64,000 nt of DNA from Escherichia phage vB_EcoM_G2469: sequence record MK327934.1; one strand, 5' to 3'. The stretch's first letter is position 1. Every line of letters starts with the position of its first letter. Both the position numbers and the translations under genes were made by a program. Shown in pieces: positions 14,682-59,155 of the stretch. The notes below the pieces were generated by a model. The model saw only the letters and a list, made by a program, of their open reading frames with translations. It was not told the origin of the DNA and did not search any database.

Positions 14682-14874
14682 TAATTGTTCCTCGAACAAA
14701 ACGAACACCACCATCATCCCAACGGATTTCGGCATTAAATTTGACGTCTTCACCATCCATCATGAATGAGTGTACGACTACGTCATCATAATATCCAAGA
14801 CCGTATTTCAACGAAACTTCTTGTGCAATCAAAGCGCCTAATGTGTTATTAGGTTTAATCCAACGATTTAACAT
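14647..14874 (-). CDS. hypothetical protein
   Basis: 75-aa ORF, ATG start, agagga SD. Confidence 0.45.
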   Translation of the reverse strand: MLNRWIKPNNTLGALIAQEVSLKYGLGYYDDVVVHSFMMDGEDVKFNAEIRWDDGGVRFVRGTINAYDAEEVVCC

Positions 14875-14902
14875 ATTGTTTTCCTCTTGAGTAAGTAAGA
14901 AT

Positions 14903-14932
14903 ATCTTAACACAGTTTTTAGTGGATGTAAAC
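14903..14932 (-). promoter_or_regulatory. early-type promoter GTTTAC-N17-TAAGAT
   Basis: read on minus strand. Confidence 0.45.
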
Positions 14933-14940
14933 TCTAGAAA

Positions 14941-14968
14941 CGAAAAAAGGAATCCCGAAGGATTCCTT
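14941..14968 (-). terminator. intrinsic terminator (ggaatcc-UUCG-ggattcc plus U6)
   Basis: perfect 7-9 bp stem with tetraloop and A6 on plus strand, just downstream of soc. Confidence 0.6.
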
Positions 14969-14975
14969 AAATTAT

Positions 14976-15212
14976 TTAACCACCTACTTCCGTGGGTGTG
15001 AACATTGCTTTGTTCTTAGTACGCCAATCTGCTGCGTCAGTCACCACAGTAGTGTAAGCAGCTTTTTCAGACGGGAAAGTCTGATAATGAGCATCAGCAA
15101 TTCGGTGCTCATTTGAGTAAATCTCAAACGGTACAGAAACTTCCATACCTTTAACTTCTTTACCTTCACCAGCAGGATGCGTAAAGGTTTTGATGTTTAC
15201 ATAACCACCCAT
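14976..15212 (-). CDS. soc: small outer capsid protein Soc
   Basis: 78 aa; GYVNIKTF and AHYQTFPSEKAAY match T4 Soc. Confidence 0.85.
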   Translation of the reverse strand: MGGYVNIKTFTHPAGEGKEVKGMEVSVPFEIYSNEHRIADAHYQTFPSEKAAYTTVVTDAADWRTKNKAMFTPTEVGG

Positions 15213-15243
15213 AATTAACTCCTTTGTTGTTTAATTACAGGTG

Positions 15244-15251
15244 TATTTATA
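15244..15251 (-). promoter_or_regulatory. late promoter TATAAATA
   Basis: exact TATAAATA on minus strand about 30 nt upstream of soc ATG. Confidence 0.5.
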
Positions 15252-15257
15252 ACTTAA

Positions 15258-15779
15258 TTAGTAACCATTATCCTGACGTTCAAAGTTGTGTTGGTTTTTC
15301 AAGTAGTAAAGTTTAAAGATTTCTTCAGCGGAAAGACCCAGACCTTGGAACATATTCAGAACAAAGTGGAGGATATCAATCATTTCAAATTTAATTTCAA
15401 GCTGGTCTTCAGGAGACAGTTCATCGATACGACGATTTCGATATTCAGCATGTTGTGCTTTCCATGGCTTCCATACAGAGCTAGCGGCTTTTTCACCATT
15501 GCTCATACCACCAAGTGAAGTCAGCAGTTCACGGAATTCATCATCAATATAATCTTTCTGATTACGCAGCCAATCAACAACATCACCGGCAGTAGCCAAT
15601 TCATCAGGATGTTTGTTATGTTCAGGCTTGTCATTTGCCAGACGAACCTGTAAAGATTTCTGCATATCAAGCATTACCTGCAGTGGGTCTTTATCTTCGT
15701 GAATCAGAGCATTAAAATAAGCTTCTTCTGCTTTATCAACACCAGAAATAAGTTGTGAACATTCGTTAAAGTGTGCCAT
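15258..15779 (-). CDS. 56: dCTPase/dUTPase, MazG-like
   Basis: 173 aa; size and position of T4 gp56. Confidence 0.8.
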   Translation of the reverse strand: MAHFNECSQLISGVDKAEEAYFNALIHEDKDPLQVMLDMQKSLQVRLANDKPEHNKHPDELATAGDVVDWLRNQKDYIDDEFRELLTSLGGMSNGEKAASSVWKPWKAQHAEYRNRRIDELSPEDQLEIKFEMIDILHFVLNMFQGLGLSAEEIFKLYYLKNQHNFERQDNGY

Positions 15780-15869
15780 TATTTTTTCCTTTCAATTCAG
15801 TAATAAGTGAGTTAATTCTAACATTAATTTTATAAAGCGTAATAAATAATAGGTAACTAAGGAGATATT

Positions 15870-16067
15870 ATGTTTAAACTTCCATCGTTAATCAACGCTA
15901 TTAAAGGCAATAAAAAGAAAACTGCTATCGCTGCAATAGTTGTAGGCGGCATTATTTCATGGAACTTCGGGATTGCGCCATTGTTAGTTGCCCATGGTAT
16001 TATAGTTCCTTCTGTTCCATTGGATACTGTAGTTGATTTGGCCTTTGCTATTGTAGGACTGGTTTAA
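15870..16067 (+). CDS. small hydrophobic membrane protein (65 aa) on plus strand
   Basis: strong SD taaggagatatt then ATG; two predicted TM segments; convergent with gene 61 (4-nt overlap). Confidence 0.4.
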   Translation: MFKLPSLINAIKGNKKKTAIAAIVVGGIISWNFGIAPLLVAHGIIVPSVPLDTVVDLAFAIVGLV

Positions 16068-17086
16068 ATCTTCGAATAACGAGATAATCTCATTTTAGCA
16101 TGCAACCCACTTGAAATATTCTGTTTCATATATTCTAAAATTTCTTGTGGTGTTGCATTTTCTTTCATTACCATATCATTCACATCCTTTGATCTCCATG
16201 GAGCTCGGTCCCAGAACATGACACGTTCGCCTGCATCAACTAATCGCTTCATGCGAGCTATAGTATCCGGATGCCTAGGTTCATTATCCATTACCCATAC
16301 CCGACGTTCTTTAAATGGTACCACATCTAAATCTATCGAGCCGCCTGTAATAGCGATTGCGTTTGGTATGAATAAACTATCAATAGGACCTTCCATTACC
16401 CAGACGTCCCCTTCCTTAACACGTTCAACACCATAAATTTTTGTTGCAGACTCAAACGCTTTAATAGTGATATATTTCTGAGGAGCATCTTTACGAAGTG
16501 CACGTCCTTGGAATGACTCGGCCTTCCCGTCTTTATTAAAAATAGGAATCACTAAACGTGGTTCGGGAATCTCTTTCTTATACGTACCGGGTTGAATCTT
16601 GTTGACCAATTTAGGCCATTCTAATGTGAACCATAATCTGTTCCACGATTCTTTAGGAATACACCGAGACTTAACATATTTCACAATAGGATGCTCTTCA
16701 GGCAACTTGTCCAGACGAGAACAAGACGGTAAAGAATTTATAGTCTTTTTCTCTGGCTCCGGCTTAGCTTCAGGAACCTTTTCAATCTTTGGTTCCATTC
16801 TAGCTTTTTCTTTACGAACTTCCATTAGATATTCGCGATAAAGCTCTTCATCATACTCTTTTAAGTATCCGGAAATTGTATTGTGGTATTGACAGTTATA
16901 GCAATGTACATTACCAGGAGTACCGCCATAATACCATCCGCGAGCTTTCATTGCATCTGTTTGGGAGTCGCCACAAACTGGACATCGAAATGTTAATTTA
17001 AATGTGCTTGAATTATTGATTTGTCTAAAACGAGGTAGGTGAGAAAACGCACGATAAGCAAATTCATTATCTATCCATTCAGCCAT
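16064..17086 (-). CDS. 61: DNA primase
   Basis: 340 aa; N-terminal zinc ribbon CPVCGDS...CYNC; T4 gp61-like. Confidence 0.9.
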   Translation of the reverse strand: MAEWIDNEFAYRAFSHLPRFRQINNSSTFKLTFRCPVCGDSQTDAMKARGWYYGGTPGNVHCYNCQYHNTISGYLKEYDEELYREYLMEVRKEKARMEPKIEKVPEAKPEPEKKTINSLPSCSRLDKLPEEHPIVKYVKSRCIPKESWNRLWFTLEWPKLVNKIQPGTYKKEIPEPRLVIPIFNKDGKAESFQGRALRKDAPQKYITIKAFESATKIYGVERVKEGDVWVMEGPIDSLFIPNAIAITGGSIDLDVVPFKERRVWVMDNEPRHPDTIARMKRLVDAGERVMFWDRAPWRSKDVNDMVMKENATPQEILEYMKQNISSGLHAKMRLSRYSKI

Positions 17087-17125
17087 AGTATTCTCCAGAG
17101 GCCTTAAATTAATAAGGCCATCATA

Positions 17126-17593
17126 TCACAACTTATTAATATTTACTTTAATTCGCTTTCTTTTCTTGGAAGGAATTTGTTCTGGACCTTTATTTACGAC
17201 TGCACCTGTAGTTGTTCCTGATGCAATAGCTTGAGGACTGCCGCCTGAATCACCAGCAACCATATCCTCAAATAAAGGGAGTTCTTTAAATATTTCTTTC
17301 TGTTGTTCTTCCGTAATGTTATAGCGTGAAGCTACAGCACTCCAGGCAGACATCATTGAGGCCATTCCATTAAGACCCGGAACAGTGCTCATCATTCGCT
17401 TCATTGAACGAACTGAAGCATGAAAAGGTGTATACGCCGCTTTCTCTTCGGGAGTAGAAGGACGTTTAAGAACACTTCCACGTTCATCGATGATTTTGGC
17501 TTCATATGCTTTCCATTCGGTAAAAGGTTTTTGCATTAGTCGAATAAACTTATATGCGTAAACAGAATCTATTGCAGTGTTAATAATACCCAT
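17126..17593 (-). CDS. hypothetical protein
   Basis: start moved to ATG at 17591-17593 with aggagg SD. Confidence 0.5.
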   Translation of the reverse strand: MGIINTAIDSVYAYKFIRLMQKPFTEWKAYEAKIIDERGSVLKRPSTPEEKAAYTPFHASVRSMKRMMSTVPGLNGMASMMSAWSAVASRYNITEEQQKEIFKELPLFEDMVAGDSGGSPQAIASGTTTGAVVNKGPEQIPSKKRKRIKVNINKL

Positions 17594-18463: not shown

Positions 18464-18757
18464 TTATTCACCTGTGATTTCGGTTACGATATCTTTGTTA
18501 TCGAAATTAGGGTCACAATACAAAACATAGTTGTACTGCATGATACCGCCAGACTTAAGTTGTTCAACAACTTTATTAACCATATTAGGACGGTCTCGTT
18601 TAGTGATGTTCATGATATCAGAGAAGATTTGTTGTTCAACATCTTCTTGATTTGCAGTCATTGACCACTCACAGAGGTCTTTATCATAACCTGCCGTAAC
18701 TGGAGCCGGTGCACATGATACTGCAAGTAAGATTGCTGCCAATGATAACTTTTTCAT
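18464..18757 (-). CDS. sp: spackle-like periplasmic protein
   Basis: 97 aa with signal peptide; same size and position as T4 Sp. Confidence 0.65.
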   Translation of the reverse strand: MKKLSLAAILLAVSCAPAPVTAGYDKDLCEWSMTANQEDVEQQIFSDIMNITKRDRPNMVNKVVEQLKSGGIMQYNYVLYCDPNFDNKDIVTEITGE

Positions 18758-22590: not shown

Positions 22591-23755
22591 CGAAATCTTC
22601 CATTTCGTCAAGGTCGTTTTCTATATCTGCTGCAGACGGAGCATCAGAAGTTTTAACCGGAACTTTAGTTGTTGCTTTGCAATTAATAAGGTCGTTAACA
22701 GCGTCATCAACTTCTTTAATAGAAGAGATAGCACCTAGTTTATATTTAGTTTCAATTGCATCTCGGAAAGGTTTGTGTTTAAACAAAGGTCCCCAGAATT
22801 CTACACAATCAGTAGCTTTAGCACGCCATGATTTTTCTTCACGAATCATTTCACCTGTTTCTTCGTCAAGGAATTCGCGAGCATACCAACCGGCTTTAGG
22901 CTTAACTACAAAACCAATTTCAGTTGCCATTTCTAACAAGCCACTGAATGGGTCAATACCGCCATCAAAATTAACCGTGATCGGGAAAGTAGATTTCTCT
23001 TTAACTGTACGAGATTTTTCCGCTTTCAACGTGAAGTCATAACCGGTCAATTCTGTACCTTCTTTAACCTGACGTTTAGAGATAAAAAATACCGTGTTGG
23101 CAGAATAAAGAATACCTGTACCACCGCCCATAATCTCTTTAGGATACAATCCGCCGATTTCCATTGCTGTATGGTTAATTGCAACACACGGAATATCTTT
23201 AATAGTCAGATAAGGAGTCACAATGCGGAACAGAGATTTAAGTGCCTTAGCACGAGACATATCACCTACAACTTTCTCGTTCAACGCATCTTCGGTTTCT
23301 TTCTTAGATGCAGTATTACCGATTGAATCGATAAAGATAATAACTTTATCACCGCGTTCAATAGCGTCAAGCTGATTAGTCATATCAACTTTAAGTTGTT
23401 CGACAGATTGAATCGGAGTATGAACTACACGGTCTAAATCAACACCCATTGAACGAAAATAAGATTCTGAAGCACCGAATTCTGAGTCATAAAACAAACA
23501 GATTGCATCTTTATATTTCTTCATATACGCTGCAACCATAGTTAGTCCAAACAACGTTTTAAAGTGTTTAGAAGGAGCAGCAAAAATAGTTAAGCCTGAT
23601 TGCAACCCTGCATTCAGTGCACCACCTAATGCGATATTCAACATCGGAATACGAGTAGGGACTTCATCACGATTATTAAACAGCTTAGACTTAGTCAAGT
23701 CTGCAGTCATTTTAGAAGTAGAAGCTTTAATCAGACGAGATTTTAAATCAGACAT
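22583..23755 (-). CDS. uvsX: UvsX recombinase (RecA-like)
   Basis: 390 aa; RecA-fold, T4 UvsX-like throughout. Confidence 0.95.
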   Translation of the reverse strand: MSDLKSRLIKASTSKMTADLTKSKLFNNRDEVPTRIPMLNIALGGALNAGLQSGLTIFAAPSKHFKTLFGLTMVAAYMKKYKDAICLFYDSEFGASESYFRSMGVDLDRVVHTPIQSVEQLKVDMTNQLDAIERGDKVIIFIDSIGNTASKKETEDALNEKVVGDMSRAKALKSLFRIVTPYLTIKDIPCVAINHTAMEIGGLYPKEIMGGGTGILYSANTVFFISKRQVKEGTELTGYDFTLKAEKSRTVKEKSTFPITVNFDGGIDPFSGLLEMATEIGFVVKPKAGWYAREFLDEETGEMIREEKSWRAKATDCVEFWGPLFKHKPFRDAIETKYKLGAISSIKEVDDAVNDLINCKATTKVPVKTSDAPSAADIENDLDEMEDFDE

Positions 23756-36638: not shown

Positions 36639-36646
36639 TATAAATA
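36639..36646 (+). promoter_or_regulatory. late promoter TATAAATA on plus strand
   Basis: exact TATAAATA 45 nt upstream of the HNH ORF ATG; SD aagga. Confidence 0.5.
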
Positions 36647-36691: not shown

Positions 36692-37408
36692 ATGAATTAT
36701 AACTCAATATACGAAAAGCTTATCACCAATGCTAAATCAAGAAGTTTAGATGGTTATACAGAACGTCATCACATTATACCACAATGTTTAGGTGGAAGTG
36801 ATGATGCTTTAAACTTAGTAGACTTAACACCGGAAGAACATTATTTGGCACATCAACTGTTGGTAAAAATCCATCCAGATAATGCCTCTTTAATATATGC
36901 CGCTCGTATGATGACCATATCATCTCCTAAAGCAGATAGAAGCAAAAACAAATTATTTGGATGGCTTCGACGTAAGAATCAAGAAGTTCAAAAGAACAAA
37001 GAATTCACTGCTGAAACCCGTAAGAAAATGTCTGAGTCTGCAAAAAATAAACCAAAGATTACATGTCCACACTGCGGTTTAACCGGCACTGAAGGAAACA
37101 TGAGACGTTGGCATTTTGATAACTGTAAACAAGGCCCTACGCCTAAAATAGTAAAACTTGATCAAGAAACAAAAGATAAAATAATTAAAACCATGGCCAC
37201 GAAAATTTGGAAAGAAGATTCTTGCCCGTTTTGTGGCTTAACTACTAAGTTATCGGCGTTAAAGCCACATATAAAATTCTGTAAATCAAATCCTAACAGA
37301 AAGAAAAAAGAGGACAAGAAAATTAAATGTCCTCATTGCGATAAAATAGGGATCCCTGCTAATATGCATCGTTGGCATTTTGATAACTGTAAACATAAGC
37401 CTCATTAA
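36692..37408 (+). CDS. HNH homing endonuclease with three C-terminal zinc-finger repeats
   Basis: 238 aa; HNH core ERHHIIPQCLGG...NLVDLTPEEHYLAH; CPHCG...RWHFDNCK repeated; opposite strand to neighbours. Confidence 0.75.
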   Translation: MNYNSIYEKLITNAKSRSLDGYTERHHIIPQCLGGSDDALNLVDLTPEEHYLAHQLLVKIHPDNASLIYAARMMTISSPKADRSKNKLFGWLRRKNQEVQKNKEFTAETRKKMSESAKNKPKITCPHCGLTGTEGNMRRWHFDNCKQGPTPKIVKLDQETKDKIIKTMATKIWKEDSCPFCGLTTKLSALKPHIKFCKSNPNRKKKEDKKIKCPHCDKIGIPANMHRWHFDNCKHKPH

Positions 37409-46648: not shown

Positions 46649-48462
46649 TGGTGTTTAACCCTATGCATGATTTCTTTATTTTTACCGAGATTAAATCCGC
46701 GTTCGTTCGGATTTCCCAAATAACCGCATGTTCTTCTTATGGTGTTCATCTTTTTAGGATCAGTTTCTCCACAGATAGAACAAACAAATCCGTTTTCAGT
46801 AGGAGTCATTTCATGGGTACTTCCACATGTAAAACATTTATCTACTGGCATATTAACACCAAAATAATCTAAATGTTGTGCAGCATAATCCCAGACGGCC
46901 TCAAGTCCTTTTAAGTTATTTTTCATATCAGGAAGTTCAACATAAGAAATGTGACCACCTGTCGCAATGAAATGATATGGCGCTTCACGAGAAATCTTTT
47001 CAAACGGAGTAATATTTTCTTCTACTGAAACGTGGAAACTGTTAGTGTACCAGCCTTTATCGGTAACATCTTTTACACTTCCATATTTTTCTGTATCGAG
47101 TTTACAGAAGCGATAACAAAGGTTTTCAGCAGGAGTAGAATACAAACTAAAAGCAAAACCAGTTCTTTCAGACCACTGTTTAAGATGAGCATTCATTTTA
47201 GTTAAAATTTCTTGTCCAATATCACGACCGACAAGAATATTCAATTCGTGAATACCAATGTATCCTAAAGACACTGAACTTCTACCGTTTTTAAATAACT
47301 CAATTATGTCGTCATCAGGTTTAAGACGAACCCCGAATGCACCTTCTTGGTAAAGAATAGGAGCAACAGTTGCTTTAACACCCTTTAAAGAACTAATTCT
47401 ACACATCAAGGCTTCAAAACACAGATCCATTCGTTCATTAAACAATTCGATAAATTTCTGTTCATTGAACTGTGTTCCAATATAAGAATCTAATGCGATA
47501 CGAGGAAGATTCAGTGTTACAACACCAAGATTATTACGTCCATCAAGAATTTCATTACCGGTTGAATCTTTCCACACACTCAAAAAACTGCGGCAACCCA
47601 TTGGAGAAACAGGAATAGATGAGCCGGTGATAGCTTTATTGTTCTTAGCTGAAATAATATCAGGATACATTCTTTTGCTTGCACATTCTAACGCAAGTTG
47701 TTTAATATCATAGTTCGGATCATCTTTATAAAGATTAACACCTTCTTCAACAAACATAACAAGCTTAGGGAAAATAGGAGTTATCCCATCACGACCAAGA
47801 CCTTTAATACGATTTTTCAGAATTGCTTTCTGAATCATTCGTTCAGTCCAGTCAGTTCCCGTACCAAATGTAATTGTTACAAAAGGCGTTTGCCCGTTTG
47901 AACTAAAGAGAGTGTTTACTTCATATTCATAAGCTTGGAATGCATCGTATACATCTTTTTCTGTTTTAGATTGAGCATAATTCAACGCATCAGCGATTTG
48001 CCATTTTTCTGCATCCTCAATATGTTTTGCATAGGTGCGTTTAACATAAGGAGAAAGTACTTTATCTACATTAGCAAAAGTCGTTCCGCCGTATTGGTGG
48101 GAAGCAACTTGTGCAGTAATTTGTGCCATAATTGCAGTAGCAACACCAATCGATTTAGGCGTTTCAATTTGAGCATTGCCTAATTTAAATCCGTTCTCAA
48201 GCATCCCCTTTAAATCGACTAAACAGCAATTAGTAAATGGAAGAGCAGGGGAATAATCAATATCGTGGAAATGGATAATTCCGCTTTCATGTGCTTTCAT
48301 AATAAAAGACGGGACCATATTTTTGGCAATGTGTTTAGACACAATACCAGCCATAAGGTCCCGTTGAGTTGGAAAAACACGAGAATCTTTATTAGCATTC
48401 TCGTTTAAAAGGTCTTTATTAGTTTTATTAATCAGTCCTTCAATTTCTTTTTCAATTTTCAT
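46645..48462 (-). CDS. nrdD: anaerobic ribonucleoside-triphosphate reductase
   Basis: 605 aa uninterrupted; C-terminal glycyl-radical motif RTCGYLG and zinc site CFTCG...CSIC. Confidence 0.95.
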   Translation of the reverse strand: MKIEKEIEGLINKTNKDLLNENANKDSRVFPTQRDLMAGIVSKHIAKNMVPSFIMKAHESGIIHFHDIDYSPALPFTNCCLVDLKGMLENGFKLGNAQIETPKSIGVATAIMAQITAQVASHQYGGTTFANVDKVLSPYVKRTYAKHIEDAEKWQIADALNYAQSKTEKDVYDAFQAYEYEVNTLFSSNGQTPFVTITFGTGTDWTERMIQKAILKNRIKGLGRDGITPIFPKLVMFVEEGVNLYKDDPNYDIKQLALECASKRMYPDIISAKNNKAITGSSIPVSPMGCRSFLSVWKDSTGNEILDGRNNLGVVTLNLPRIALDSYIGTQFNEQKFIELFNERMDLCFEALMCRISSLKGVKATVAPILYQEGAFGVRLKPDDDIIELFKNGRSSVSLGYIGIHELNILVGRDIGQEILTKMNAHLKQWSERTGFAFSLYSTPAENLCYRFCKLDTEKYGSVKDVTDKGWYTNSFHVSVEENITPFEKISREAPYHFIATGGHISYVELPDMKNNLKGLEAVWDYAAQHLDYFGVNMPVDKCFTCGSTHEMTPTENGFVCSICGETDPKKMNTIRRTCGYLGNPNERGFNLGKNKEIMHRVKHQ

Positions 48463-48932
48463 TTTAAACTCTTTCTAAGCTGCTTTTTGAATGAAGCTAT
48501 TAATTGTGTTTTAGTATCAGATTCATTATATTCAAATCCTCTTTGAAGCATCTCGGTCATCATTTCCTCTTTACCTAGTCTTGAGAACTCTTTAGTTTTG
48601 TCTGGAACAAAATTAGGATGGATATTATTAGCAGAATAATCTTGTTTCAAATAAGCAAGAAGAGCTTCAAGCCATTCGAGGTAGTCGACATCACGACCTT
48701 TAAGACCAGAACGGTTGAACTTATGCTTCATTTGGCCTTCTGCTGCGTTGCACAGAGAACAGAGTAACCCACGAACTCTACCGGCTTTTGGCCCGTTTAA
48801 TTCATGGTCGTGGTCAAGATGGTTACCTTGAACATCAGGGTCTAATTCACGGTGGCAAATAGGACACTTACCATTCTGTGCATCATAAAATTTTTGTTTT
48901 TCTTCTTTATATTTTGCGCCTGATAATAACAT
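48459..48932 (-). CDS. 49: endonuclease VII (Holliday junction resolvase)
   Basis: 157 aa; zinc and H-N-H motifs CPICH...HLDHDH...CSLCN. Confidence 0.85.
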   Translation of the reverse strand: MLLSGAKYKEEKQKFYDAQNGKCPICHRELDPDVQGNHLDHDHELNGPKAGRVRGLLCSLCNAAEGQMKHKFNRSGLKGRDVDYLEWLEALLAYLKQDYSANNIHPNFVPDKTKEFSRLGKEEMMTEMLQRGFEYNESDTKTQLIASFKKQLRKSLK

Positions 48933-55474: not shown

Positions 55475-55756
55475 TTACTTATCGCACTTAGCAACATAAT
55501 TAGGCATATCACAGAATACGGAGCGAGTAACTACTCGGCCCTTTGACCATGCTTCAGTTGCTTGTCCGGCCGTGCTATTAATATAGCTTGATCTGATATT
55601 CTCAATACCCTGAGAATGTGATGCATTTACCGAACCATTGGAAGGCCCAGAAGACTGGTTACCACCAGCTCCTGCACTACCGCCGGCTGGACCTGTGGTA
55701 GCACCAACAGAGAATGCCATCATTACTGCGAATAAACCAATTACTAATTTTTTCAT
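55475..55756 (-). CDS. secreted Gly/Ser-rich protein
   Basis: 93 aa; N-terminal signal peptide. Confidence 0.5.
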   Translation of the reverse strand: MKKLVIGLFAVMMAFSVGATTGPAGGSAGAGGNQSSGPSNGSVNASHSQGIENIRSSYINSTAGQATEAWSKGRVVTRSVFCDMPNYVAKCDK

Positions 55757-58627: not shown

Positions 58628-58930
58628 TTAGATAGATGTAGGCTCTAATTTTATTTTCATGAACTCGGCAAATTGTCTGGCAGTTTTTATGCCTTGTTCA
58701 TGACATTCAAATGCATCATCACAGGGACTATTTTTGTAATGCTTTGCCATATACTTATAGAATTTTTCAGAATTCTCGACATTTTGAATTTCAAACAAAG
58801 TATATACGTTTTTAATCCCTGATTCCATAAAGTTATCAAAATATGGGTCGATATATGCAGTACCAACGATAGGAGTTGTTGCTGCAAAAAACCCCAGCAT
58901 CGCCATGACAGCTATCGCTCTTAAGGCCAT
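58628..58930 (-). CDS. rI: lysis-inhibition regulator rI (antiholin)
   Basis: 100 aa; signal-anchor then DPYFDNFMESGIKNVY, matches T4 RI. Confidence 0.8.
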   Translation of the reverse strand: MALRAIAVMAMLGFFAATTPIVGTAYIDPYFDNFMESGIKNVYTLFEIQNVENSEKFYKYMAKHYKNSPCDDAFECHEQGIKTARQFAEFMKIKLEPTSI

Positions 58931-58942
58931 ATAGGCCTCCTG

Positions 58943-59155
58943 TTAATTTTGGCCAGTATTTATTTTTCGCCTTTGGACGGCCTTAACATCTGTGAGGTAT
59001 TTTTCCAGCTTGCGCTTGCGTGTATAATCAGCTTTAGAACCAGTTTGACGGATATCCTCGTTTAAATGAGAAATAGAATGTCCTAATTCTCTTCGGATTT
59101 CATCCAATTGGGTTACAGTAAGATTACGAAGTTGTCTTTCGTTTAATTGCTGCAT
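58943..59155 (-). CDS. small hypothetical protein
   Basis: 70-aa ORF, ATG start. Confidence 0.45.

Follow-up and report, generated by a model that had tools for sequence, protein, structure and literature searches.

A small hydrophobic gene convergent with primase gene 61 is conserved among T-even phages and probably encodes a late membrane microprotein

Between the early genes 56 and 61 of Escherichia phage vB_EcoM_G2469 (sequence record MK327934.1), a small open reading frame (ORF) runs on the plus strand, opposite to both of its neighbours, and the comparison with related phages makes it almost certain that this ORF is a real gene under purifying selection at the protein level. By homology, it is an already annotated gene—listed as RB69ORF029w, as Dam.1 and as PHROG 2024—and not a new one. 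The view to which we commit ourselves is that of a non-essential, late inner-membrane microprotein that would modulate an envelope event. Taken as one package, a real, late-transcribed, inner-membrane accessory microprotein appears moderately probable to us.

The window, i.e., the whole 64-kb stretch of DNA that was analysed, had been inspected before in a sequence-only reading, which drew attention to a hydrophobic plus-strand ORF of 65 amino acids (aa) that is led by one of the strongest Shine-Dalgarno (SD) sequences and overlaps the stop codon of gene 61 by 4 nt in convergent orientation. These observations were borne out, and the features concerned are as follows.

15870..16067, plus strand: 65-aa ORF with ATG start, the ortholog of RB69ORF029w, T4T Dam.1 and RB32ORF030w (PHROG 2024)
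15858..15864, plus strand: SD sequence TAAGGAG, 5 nt before the ATG of the ORF
16064..17086, minus strand: gene 61 (DNA primase), assigned by PHROG 47 (E 9e-102) and the annotation of relatives; convergent with the ORF
15258..15779, minus strand: gene 56 (dCTPase), assigned by PHROG 173 (E 1.6e-45) and Pfam dUTPase_2; divergent from the ORF
16064..16067: TTAA, the overlapping TAA stops of the ORF (plus strand) and gene 61 (minus strand)

The window is that of a Mosigvirus, as the region matches genomes of this RB69 group of T-even phages at 98% identity, and the high hydrophobicity of the ORF product is reflected in a GRAVY value of 1.24. With an anti-SD duplex energy of -9.1 kcal/mol, the SD takes rank 5 (tied 5–8) among the 187 ORFs of the 64-kb window that begin with ATG and encode 50 aa or more. 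The reading frames of the ORF and gene 61 overlap by the 4 nt of the shared stop, and the complete 56–61 interval, from which dam is absent, measures 284 nt (15780–16063). A strong SD is also present before a further plus-strand ORF of the window, 23223–23375, which is without a PHROG match and as a gene is probably spurious.

The match of the ORF product to PHROG 2024 (E 1.4e-27) extends over residues 1–65 and profile positions 1–65 of 65, and the product is 97% identical to RB69ORF029w, which was tabulated in 2006 by Nolan et al. with a transmembrane (TM) helix at residues 21–41 and no signal peptide (PMC1524935, supplement 2). In HX01 and WFbE185, the homolog is annotated as a hypothetical protein. 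A tblastn search found the ORF in 692 phage records, including those of T4 and T2 (55–57% identity), with gene 61 always adjoining. The T4 homolog comprises 66 aa (NC_000866, 17738–17938, plus strand), lies between dam and 61, and overlaps gene 61 by the same TTAA stop tetranucleotide; it is unannotated in the T4 RefSeq record, which leaves the dam–61 gap empty, and is named Dam.1 in the T4T record and RB32ORF030w in RB14/RB32.

The T4 homolog also bears on the composition of the 56–61 interval, in which the sequence-only reading had missed both dam and gene 69 of T4. The absence of dam from this interval stands, while the implied presence of a local substitute for the T4 genes does not, given the 55–57% identical homolog in T4 itself. 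A role of the ORF as a Mosigvirus-specific stand-in for dam is ruled out because T4 carries the homolog beside dam and because many Tequatrovirus genomes share the 56/ORF/61 layout without dam; dam is best read as an extra insertion in T4. The placement of gene 69 in this interval of T4 had to be given up as well, considering that dam is the sole gene annotated there in the current T4 record. The gene segF, which we take to be the former "gene 69", is located between 56 and soc, outside the 56–61 interval.

The coding character of the ORF is evident from its pattern of substitution. In comparison with an 83%-identical Mosigvirus allele, 14, 3 and 31 substitutions fall on codon positions 1, 2 and 3, respectively, and dN/dS is 0.09; in comparison with the T4 homolog, the corresponding counts are 30, 12 and 43, with synonymous sites being saturated. 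Conservation in relatives, which had been proposed as a check of the ORF, was confirmed by tblastn—a single uninterrupted match over at least 80% of the protein length is present in 685 of the 692 phage records. Close copies (at least 80% identity) occur in 154 records, and a Mosigvirus-type gp61 is likewise present in 154.

To follow the family beyond the close relatives, gp61 served as an anchor and the 3' side of the primase gene was inspected in ever more distant phages. A convergent ORF of 63–74 aa is found there in Dhakavirus, in two phages of Gelderlandvirus, in Kanagawavirus and in a Klebsiella T4-like phage; members convergent to gene 61 are likewise present in Tequatrovirus, Mosigvirus and Gaprivervirus and on metagenomic contigs, i.e., in every Tevenvirinae genus sampled. 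The layout, with the ORF opposite to gene 61 and abutting its 3' end, is identical in RB69, HX01, T4T and SA20RB and in five further genera. Two tandem paralogs are arranged in opposite orders in Gaprivervirus versus Mosigvirus ESCO47, and in one Gaprivervirus the second copy has decayed. The subtypes align as one family though they are only 20–27% identical, and PHROG 2024 is matched by all of the 53 aligned members. Between genera, identity within the family amounts to 20–55%, as opposed to 60–74% for gp61.

A profile search of 5.8 billion proteins yielded 92 clusters at 90% identity, all of them 47–74 aa in length and originating from T4-like contigs, without a Pfam domain and without an informative name. 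When a profile made from Mosigvirus members only was run with HMMER, exhaustively, against 1.84 billion representatives, it returned two clusters only, and no distant relatives at such depth. The divergent metagenomic members are lone opposite-strand genes between 56 and 61, and they overlap their convergent neighbour by 4 nt even where an inserted 124-aa gene takes the place of the primase. The same 4-nt convergent overlap is seen in T4, RB69, ESCO47, UPEC01, Dhakavirus, Gelderlandvirus ABTNLPp2, Kanagawavirus and on metagenomic contigs. The family is absent from Tulanevirus, Lazarusvirus, JC221, Slopekvirus and Krischvirus, five related genera outside Tevenvirinae; in these outgroups, gene 56 or another gene follows directly after 61 on the same strand, leaving no room for the ORF. 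The simplest history would be a single insertion in the Tevenvirinae ancestor, at a site which in other lineages later also took in dam and homing endonucleases. As a by-product of the analysis, the family is thus shown to span all sampled Tevenvirinae genera.

The orientation of the ORF is relevant for the timing of its expression, since T4 early and middle transcripts are of one polarity, and only late transcripts are made from either strand (review by Geiduschek and Kassavetis, PMC2988020). Upstream of the ORF, the near-late-promoter motif of the sequence-only reading was recovered, back-to-back with a putative middle promoter of gene 56.

15841..15848, plus strand: late-promoter-like octamer AATAAATA, 21 nt before the ATG, matching TATAAATA at 7 of 8 positions
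15815..15839, minus strand: putative MotA-type middle promoter for gene 56, with CGCTTTA (15833–15839), a 12-nt spacer and TAGAAT (15815–15820)

The plus-strand octamer corresponds to the T4 late consensus TATAAATA with A at position -13. T4-type late promoters, which depend on gp55, gp33 and gp45, have such a -10 element about 6 nt before the transcription start and need no -35 element. Among 50 listed T4 late promoters, 32 carry the perfect octamer and nine have A at -13, which is the commonest variant (PMC2988020), and in RB69-type phages position -13 of late promoters is A or T (Nolan et al., PMC1524935). Transcription is predicted to start at about 15854–15855, which would give a leader of about 15 nt. 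In SA20RB, the corresponding intergenic region has an annotated middle promoter that is comparable to the putative one of gene 56.

In a census of the window, all six minus-strand ATAAATA sites lie 27–39 nt before SD-led gene starts—including those of soc (TATAAATA), rI (AATAAATA) and gene 49 (AATAAATA), as identified by PHROG—and by the same measure the distance for the 65-aa ORF is 28 nt. On the plus strand, two of the five sites precede the only two credible plus-strand genes, the second one being a homing endonuclease (36692–37408) with a perfect TATAAATA 45 nt upstream. Across the family, ATAAATA is positioned 12–22 nt before the ATG in seven of nine lineages, with the flanks having diverged. 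The Dhakavirus ORF has the perfect octamer, and two Gelderlandvirus members show ATTAAATA in place of ATAAATA. GGAGG or AGGAG is present in every family member standing first in line.

On this basis, it is probable that the ORF is transcribed late, from a gp55-type late promoter. RNA polymerase with gp55 would initiate a late transcript from AATAAATA, the short leader would bring the strong SD to this transcript, and the ORF would form its own small transcription unit, reversed between the early genes 56 and 61.

At the junction with gene 61, a terminator was predicted neither inside nor after the ORF nor at the junction itself, and unusually stable RNA structure was not detected (folding z-scores of -0.1 to +1.0 versus shuffled sequences); Rfam gave no match at E up to 1 within 14800–17300. 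Hairpins are lineage-specific, occurring in T4 and the Klebsiella phage only, and in one lineage a terminator-like GC hairpin separates the ORF from gene 61. Given the lack of a predicted terminator, a late plus-strand transcript would have to continue into the 3' end of gene 61 in antisense orientation, and, with no structure in between, it would overlap as an antisense partner with early transcripts that read through from gene 61.

Three other explanations of the locus have to be weighed against that of a late protein-coding gene. That gene finders over-called a chance ORF of an AT-rich intergenic spacer might be suspected from the shortness of the frame and its omission from the curated T4 RefSeq annotation; moreover, our literature search, including T4 ribosome-profiling and transcription start site studies, found no transcript, ribosome-profiling, proteomic, mutant or functional data on the gene. 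Yet a chance frame would hardly be kept in 685 of 692 records and several genera, with codon-position bias and a dN/dS of 0.09 pointing to coding, with invariant motifs, and with an SD that is both strong and conserved, so that this explanation is extremely improbable and, as far as comparative data can tell, already effectively refuted. That the gene is real but not late, being served by an unrecognised early or middle plus-strand promoter or by read-through only, is unlikely in our judgement. It would be in line with the list of 31 RB69 late promoters called by a hidden Markov model (HMM; Nolan et al. 2006), which contains no plus-strand site near RB69 coordinate 16030, with the off-consensus base at -13, and with the missing exact heptamer in Gelderlandvirus. 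On the other hand, scanning of the plus-strand sequence before the ORF predicted no promoter of the sigma-70 type, the T4 early and middle transcripts all run in the opposite direction (PMC2988020), and the census of the window links ATAAATA tightly to gene starts. Finally, the plus-strand RNA could itself be the functional product and the peptide incidental, with the RNA acting as an antisense to 61 and possibly pairing with read-through bound for gene 56, by which early mRNAs would be shut off or destabilised. The 4-nt convergent overlap, which leaves no space for a terminator and recurs across genera, also with a different convergent neighbour gene, would fit such a mechanism. It is, however, difficult to reconcile with the strong protein-level constraint (dN/dS 0.09) and with Trp-Asn, Pro and Gly residues that are invariant across subtypes of 20% identity next to a conserved SD; Rfam offers no match, and the lineage with the GC hairpin demonstrates that the overlap is not obligatory. 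We, therefore, regard an RNA function as very unlikely, while a late protein-coding gene could still act in antisense as a by-effect.

For the ORF product, the analysis of hydropathy revealed a single clear TM segment at about residues 18–41, with residues 18–36 as the best hydrophobic 19-mer. An AlphaFold2 model built on the 53-sequence alignment (mean pLDDT 83) comprises helices at residues 4–11, 17–41 and 52–62 and a Pro-rich loop at residues 42–51, of which two elements are of particular interest.

15918..15992, plus strand: predicted TM helix, codons 17–41 (AlphaFold2, pLDDT 89–94)
16023..16055, plus strand: amphipathic C-terminal helix, codons 52–62 (AlphaFold2), predicted to face the periplasm

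The C-terminal 24 residues are hydrophobic (mean hydropathy 1.6–1.8), and the hydrophobic moment over residues 50–65 is 1.40. The N-terminal segment has a mean net charge of +3.0 and the C-terminal one of -1.2, with the N side being more positive in 51 of the 53 members; based on this charge asymmetry and the positive-inside rule, an N-in/C-out single-pass inner-membrane protein is predicted. It is highly likely that the product is a membrane protein. Its lysine-rich N-terminus would stay in the cytoplasm, one TM helix (approximately residues 17–41) would cross the inner membrane, and its short amphipathic C-terminal helix would sit on the periplasmic side.

Within and after the hydrophobic helix, the product possesses a W-N-x4-P ... 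G ... P core, in which W31, N32 and P37 are invariant over the 53 members, and conservation reaches at least 94% for G43 and P47; G63 is nearly invariant. The Trp31-Asn32 codons (15960–15965) lie inside the predicted TM helix, as does Pro37. The conservation of Trp31-Asn32, Pro37, Gly43 and Pro47 suggests that the helix is not a generic anchor but makes a specific contact with another helix, be it that of a second copy or that of a membrane partner. Known folds and families gave little to compare with: there was no Pfam match for the ORF product or any of the 53 members and no meaningful PADLOC match in any of them, Foldseek returned only generic helices from the PDB (best E 2.7), and its search of BFVD retrieved family members only.

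An indication of dispensability comes from three laboratory T4 derivatives in which the ORF homolog is frameshifted. T4_ev240 has a 1-nt deletion, and a 2-nt deletion, along with a 4-nt deletion in the SD spacer, is common to the mutant clones T4_7t1 and T4_583L. Unless these frameshifts are sequencing errors, they suggest that the phage can grow in culture without the gene.

Which envelope event a late membrane microprotein of this kind would modulate is a matter of lower confidence. With low confidence, our best guess is a dispensable modulator of late envelope events, in the first place of holin-dependent lysis timing or of lysis inhibition. The gene shares the late-promoter variant, the taxonomic footprint and the level of divergence with rI; this co-distribution was considered as a functional link and found to be uninformative, since any Tevenvirinae-specific gene has an equal footprint, and an alignment of the family profile with the phage's own RI by hhalign (probability 0.4%, E 0.17) indicates that the two are unrelated. 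One T4-type member has been named "Holin" by its depositors (UniProt/BFVD), and the papers citing the phage of that member contain no experiment on the protein. Matches to the "holin" PHROG 11161 are limited to one subtype and to 23 hydrophobic residues, at E values of 8e-4 to 0.44; a Pfam holin family is matched by none of the 53 members, and the charged hydrophilic C-terminal tail of holins is absent, with the net charge averaging -1.2. T4 lysis strictly needs the holin T, and t mutants do not lyse. We know of no lysis locus that classical T4 r-mutant genetics mapped between 56 and 61, and because of this, together with the failure of t mutants to lyse, an independent holin role is disfavoured; we think that the product is not a holin in its own right.

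Other actions at the envelope, taken together, are a tentative possibility, comprising a block of superinfection or DNA entry as exerted by Imm and Sp, the countering of a membrane-based effector of host abortive infection or defence, and help with head or baseplate assembly at the membrane. Such actions would suit a small, predicted bitopic membrane protein whose sequence turns over faster between genera (20–55% identity) than that of gp61 (60–74%), whose subtypes are swapped or tandemly duplicated at the site, as is common for host-interaction genes, and whose gene is apparently dispensable in the laboratory. However, early expression is the rule for the known exclusion genes of T4 and for the majority of anti-defence genes, while the ORF is found on the late-only strand behind a late-type motif; PADLOC and Pfam matches are absent, and selection within Mosigvirus is strongly purifying (dN/dS 0.09) instead of diversifying. 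A more far-reaching proposal, which we hold to be unlikely, is that of an overlooked late component of the T-even machinery for lysis timing or lysis inhibition, namely a Trp-Asn membrane microprotein tuning holin T or antiholin RI, or else another envelope event, with a transcript that may act as an antisense to the primase mRNA. If this were true, its small size, its dispensability and its omission from the reference annotation would explain why 70 years of T4 genetics passed Dam.1 by.

Regardless of its precise role, a gene with clear purifying selection that is conserved across the T-even subfamily is omitted from the T4 reference records NC_000866 (RefSeq) and AF158101 (GenBank), and studies built on their annotation, e.g., by proteomics, knock-down screening or RNA-seq, will have overlooked it. 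It is one of two credible late-only-strand genes within a 64-kb early block and constitutes a compact test case for convergent early and late transcription with overlapping stop codons. In the best-studied group of lytic phages, this probably late membrane microprotein could add a player to the control of lysis or the envelope, or prove to be a minor accessory.

Regarding known systems, the closest counterparts are RB69ORF029w, T4T Dam.1 and RB32ORF030w, which occupy the same position convergent to the 3' end of gene 61; there is no material difference from this family, and the present copy is its Mosigvirus allele. T4 RI is likewise a small, membrane-anchored T-even protein with a similar taxonomic footprint and Mosigvirus–T4 divergence, and rI of this genome is preceded by the same AATAAATA variant of the late promoter. 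The r genes are dispensable for plaque formation, and the ORF is likely to be so too. RI, however, combines an N-terminal signal-anchor-release domain with a folded, holin-binding periplasmic domain of about 70 aa, whereas in the ORF product the TM helix is followed by no more than about 24 residues, most of them hydrophobic, and RI is without sequence or profile similarity to the ORF family; we know of no genetic link of the family to lysis. With small phage holins, which open lethal lesions in the membrane for the timed release of endolysin, the ORF product shares a size of 60–70 aa, one strongly hydrophobic helix and a probably late expression, but holins have a charged cytoplasmic C-terminal tail, while the C-terminus of the ORF product is hydrophobic and slightly acidic; the T4 holin T is unrelated to the family.

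Imm and Sp of T4 are T-even-specific accessory proteins as well, small and located in the membrane or periplasm, and Sp is encoded only about 2.4 kb away (18464–18757). In contrast to the ORF, which is located on the opposite strand behind a late motif, they are early genes on the early strand, and Sp, which carries a signal peptide, is of another family. Phage morons resemble the ORF in having their own promoter-like element and SD and in being placed between genes that are directly adjacent in outgroup phages. They differ from it in that the ORF lacks its own terminator and resides in a strictly lytic phage, and in that morons are expressed in the lysogen, whereas the ORF would be expressed from a phage late promoter.

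In the 90-bp spacer between gene 56 (dCTPase, minus strand) and the small plus-strand ORF, the late-promoter variant AATAAATA is immediately adjoined by a further promoter-like element:

15815-15839, minus strand: MotA-box-like element with a -10 (CGCTTTA, N12, TAGAAT), upstream of gene 56

Given this abutment, the spacer may, as judged from sequence, hold a middle and a late promoter arranged back-to-back. The same variant, as well as the T4 late-promoter consensus octamer TATAAATA, is also found before minus-strand genes of the window, with TATAAATA preceding two ORFs that belong to PHROG families of unknown function (55475-55756 and 58943-59155) and AATAAATA preceding two named genes:

48459-48932, minus strand: gene 49 (endonuclease VII), AATAAATA 36 nt before the ATG
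58628-58930, minus strand: rI (lysis inhibition), AATAAATA 33 nt before the ATG

Besides the small ORF, a homing endonuclease gene, located inside a gap of ~1 kb that interrupts the minus-strand gene array, is the sole other credible plus-strand gene in the 64-kb window; a perfect TATAAATA octamer (36639-36646, plus strand) lies 45 nt 5' of it. A further, probably spurious plus-strand ORF has a strong SD, but lacks a PHROG match and overlaps minus-strand coding sequence.

36692-37408, plus strand: homing endonuclease, 238 aa (PHROG 655, E 7e-67)
23223-23375, plus strand: 50-aa ORF with strong SD (ATAAGGAG)

In Klebsiella phage K65_evo1 (L012 2517-2540), a 19-nt interval takes the place of the overlap between the small ORF and gene 61, and within it a GC-rich hairpin (aaggggctttggcccc) resembles, by its sequence, a bidirectional terminator. 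In one metagenomic T4-like contig (L024 2501-3078), a 124-aa minus-strand gene is inserted between primase and the small ORF, and a 4-nt overlap is kept with this inserted convergent gene.

The small ORF also occurs as two paralogous subtypes in tandem, the order of which is reversed between phages (L006 2501-2907; L008 1305-1698; L007 2471-2830), being type A followed by type B in Gaprivervirus UPEC01 and type B followed by type A in Mosigvirus ESCO47. Gaprivervirus CJ20 carries a decayed second copy, with a TGA directly after the ATG.

In the laboratory T4 derivatives T4_ev240, T4_7t1 and T4_583L (L021 583-708; L022 674-799; L023 ~601-796), the family member dam.1 is frameshifted. A 1-nt deletion shortens an A-run in T4_ev240, while the mutant clones T4_7t1 and T4_583L have in common a 2-nt deletion in dam.1 and a 4-nt deletion in its SD-ATG spacer. 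Such lesions reflect either genuine loss of gene function or errors in assembly. In the T4 reference records NC_000866 and AF158101, the 310-bp dam-61 gap is without annotation; it contains, however, a conserved ORF, which is called in T4T (HM137666) and by automated annotations:

NC_000866.4 17738-17938 (L005 3239-3439), plus strand: Dam.1 ORF, 66 aa
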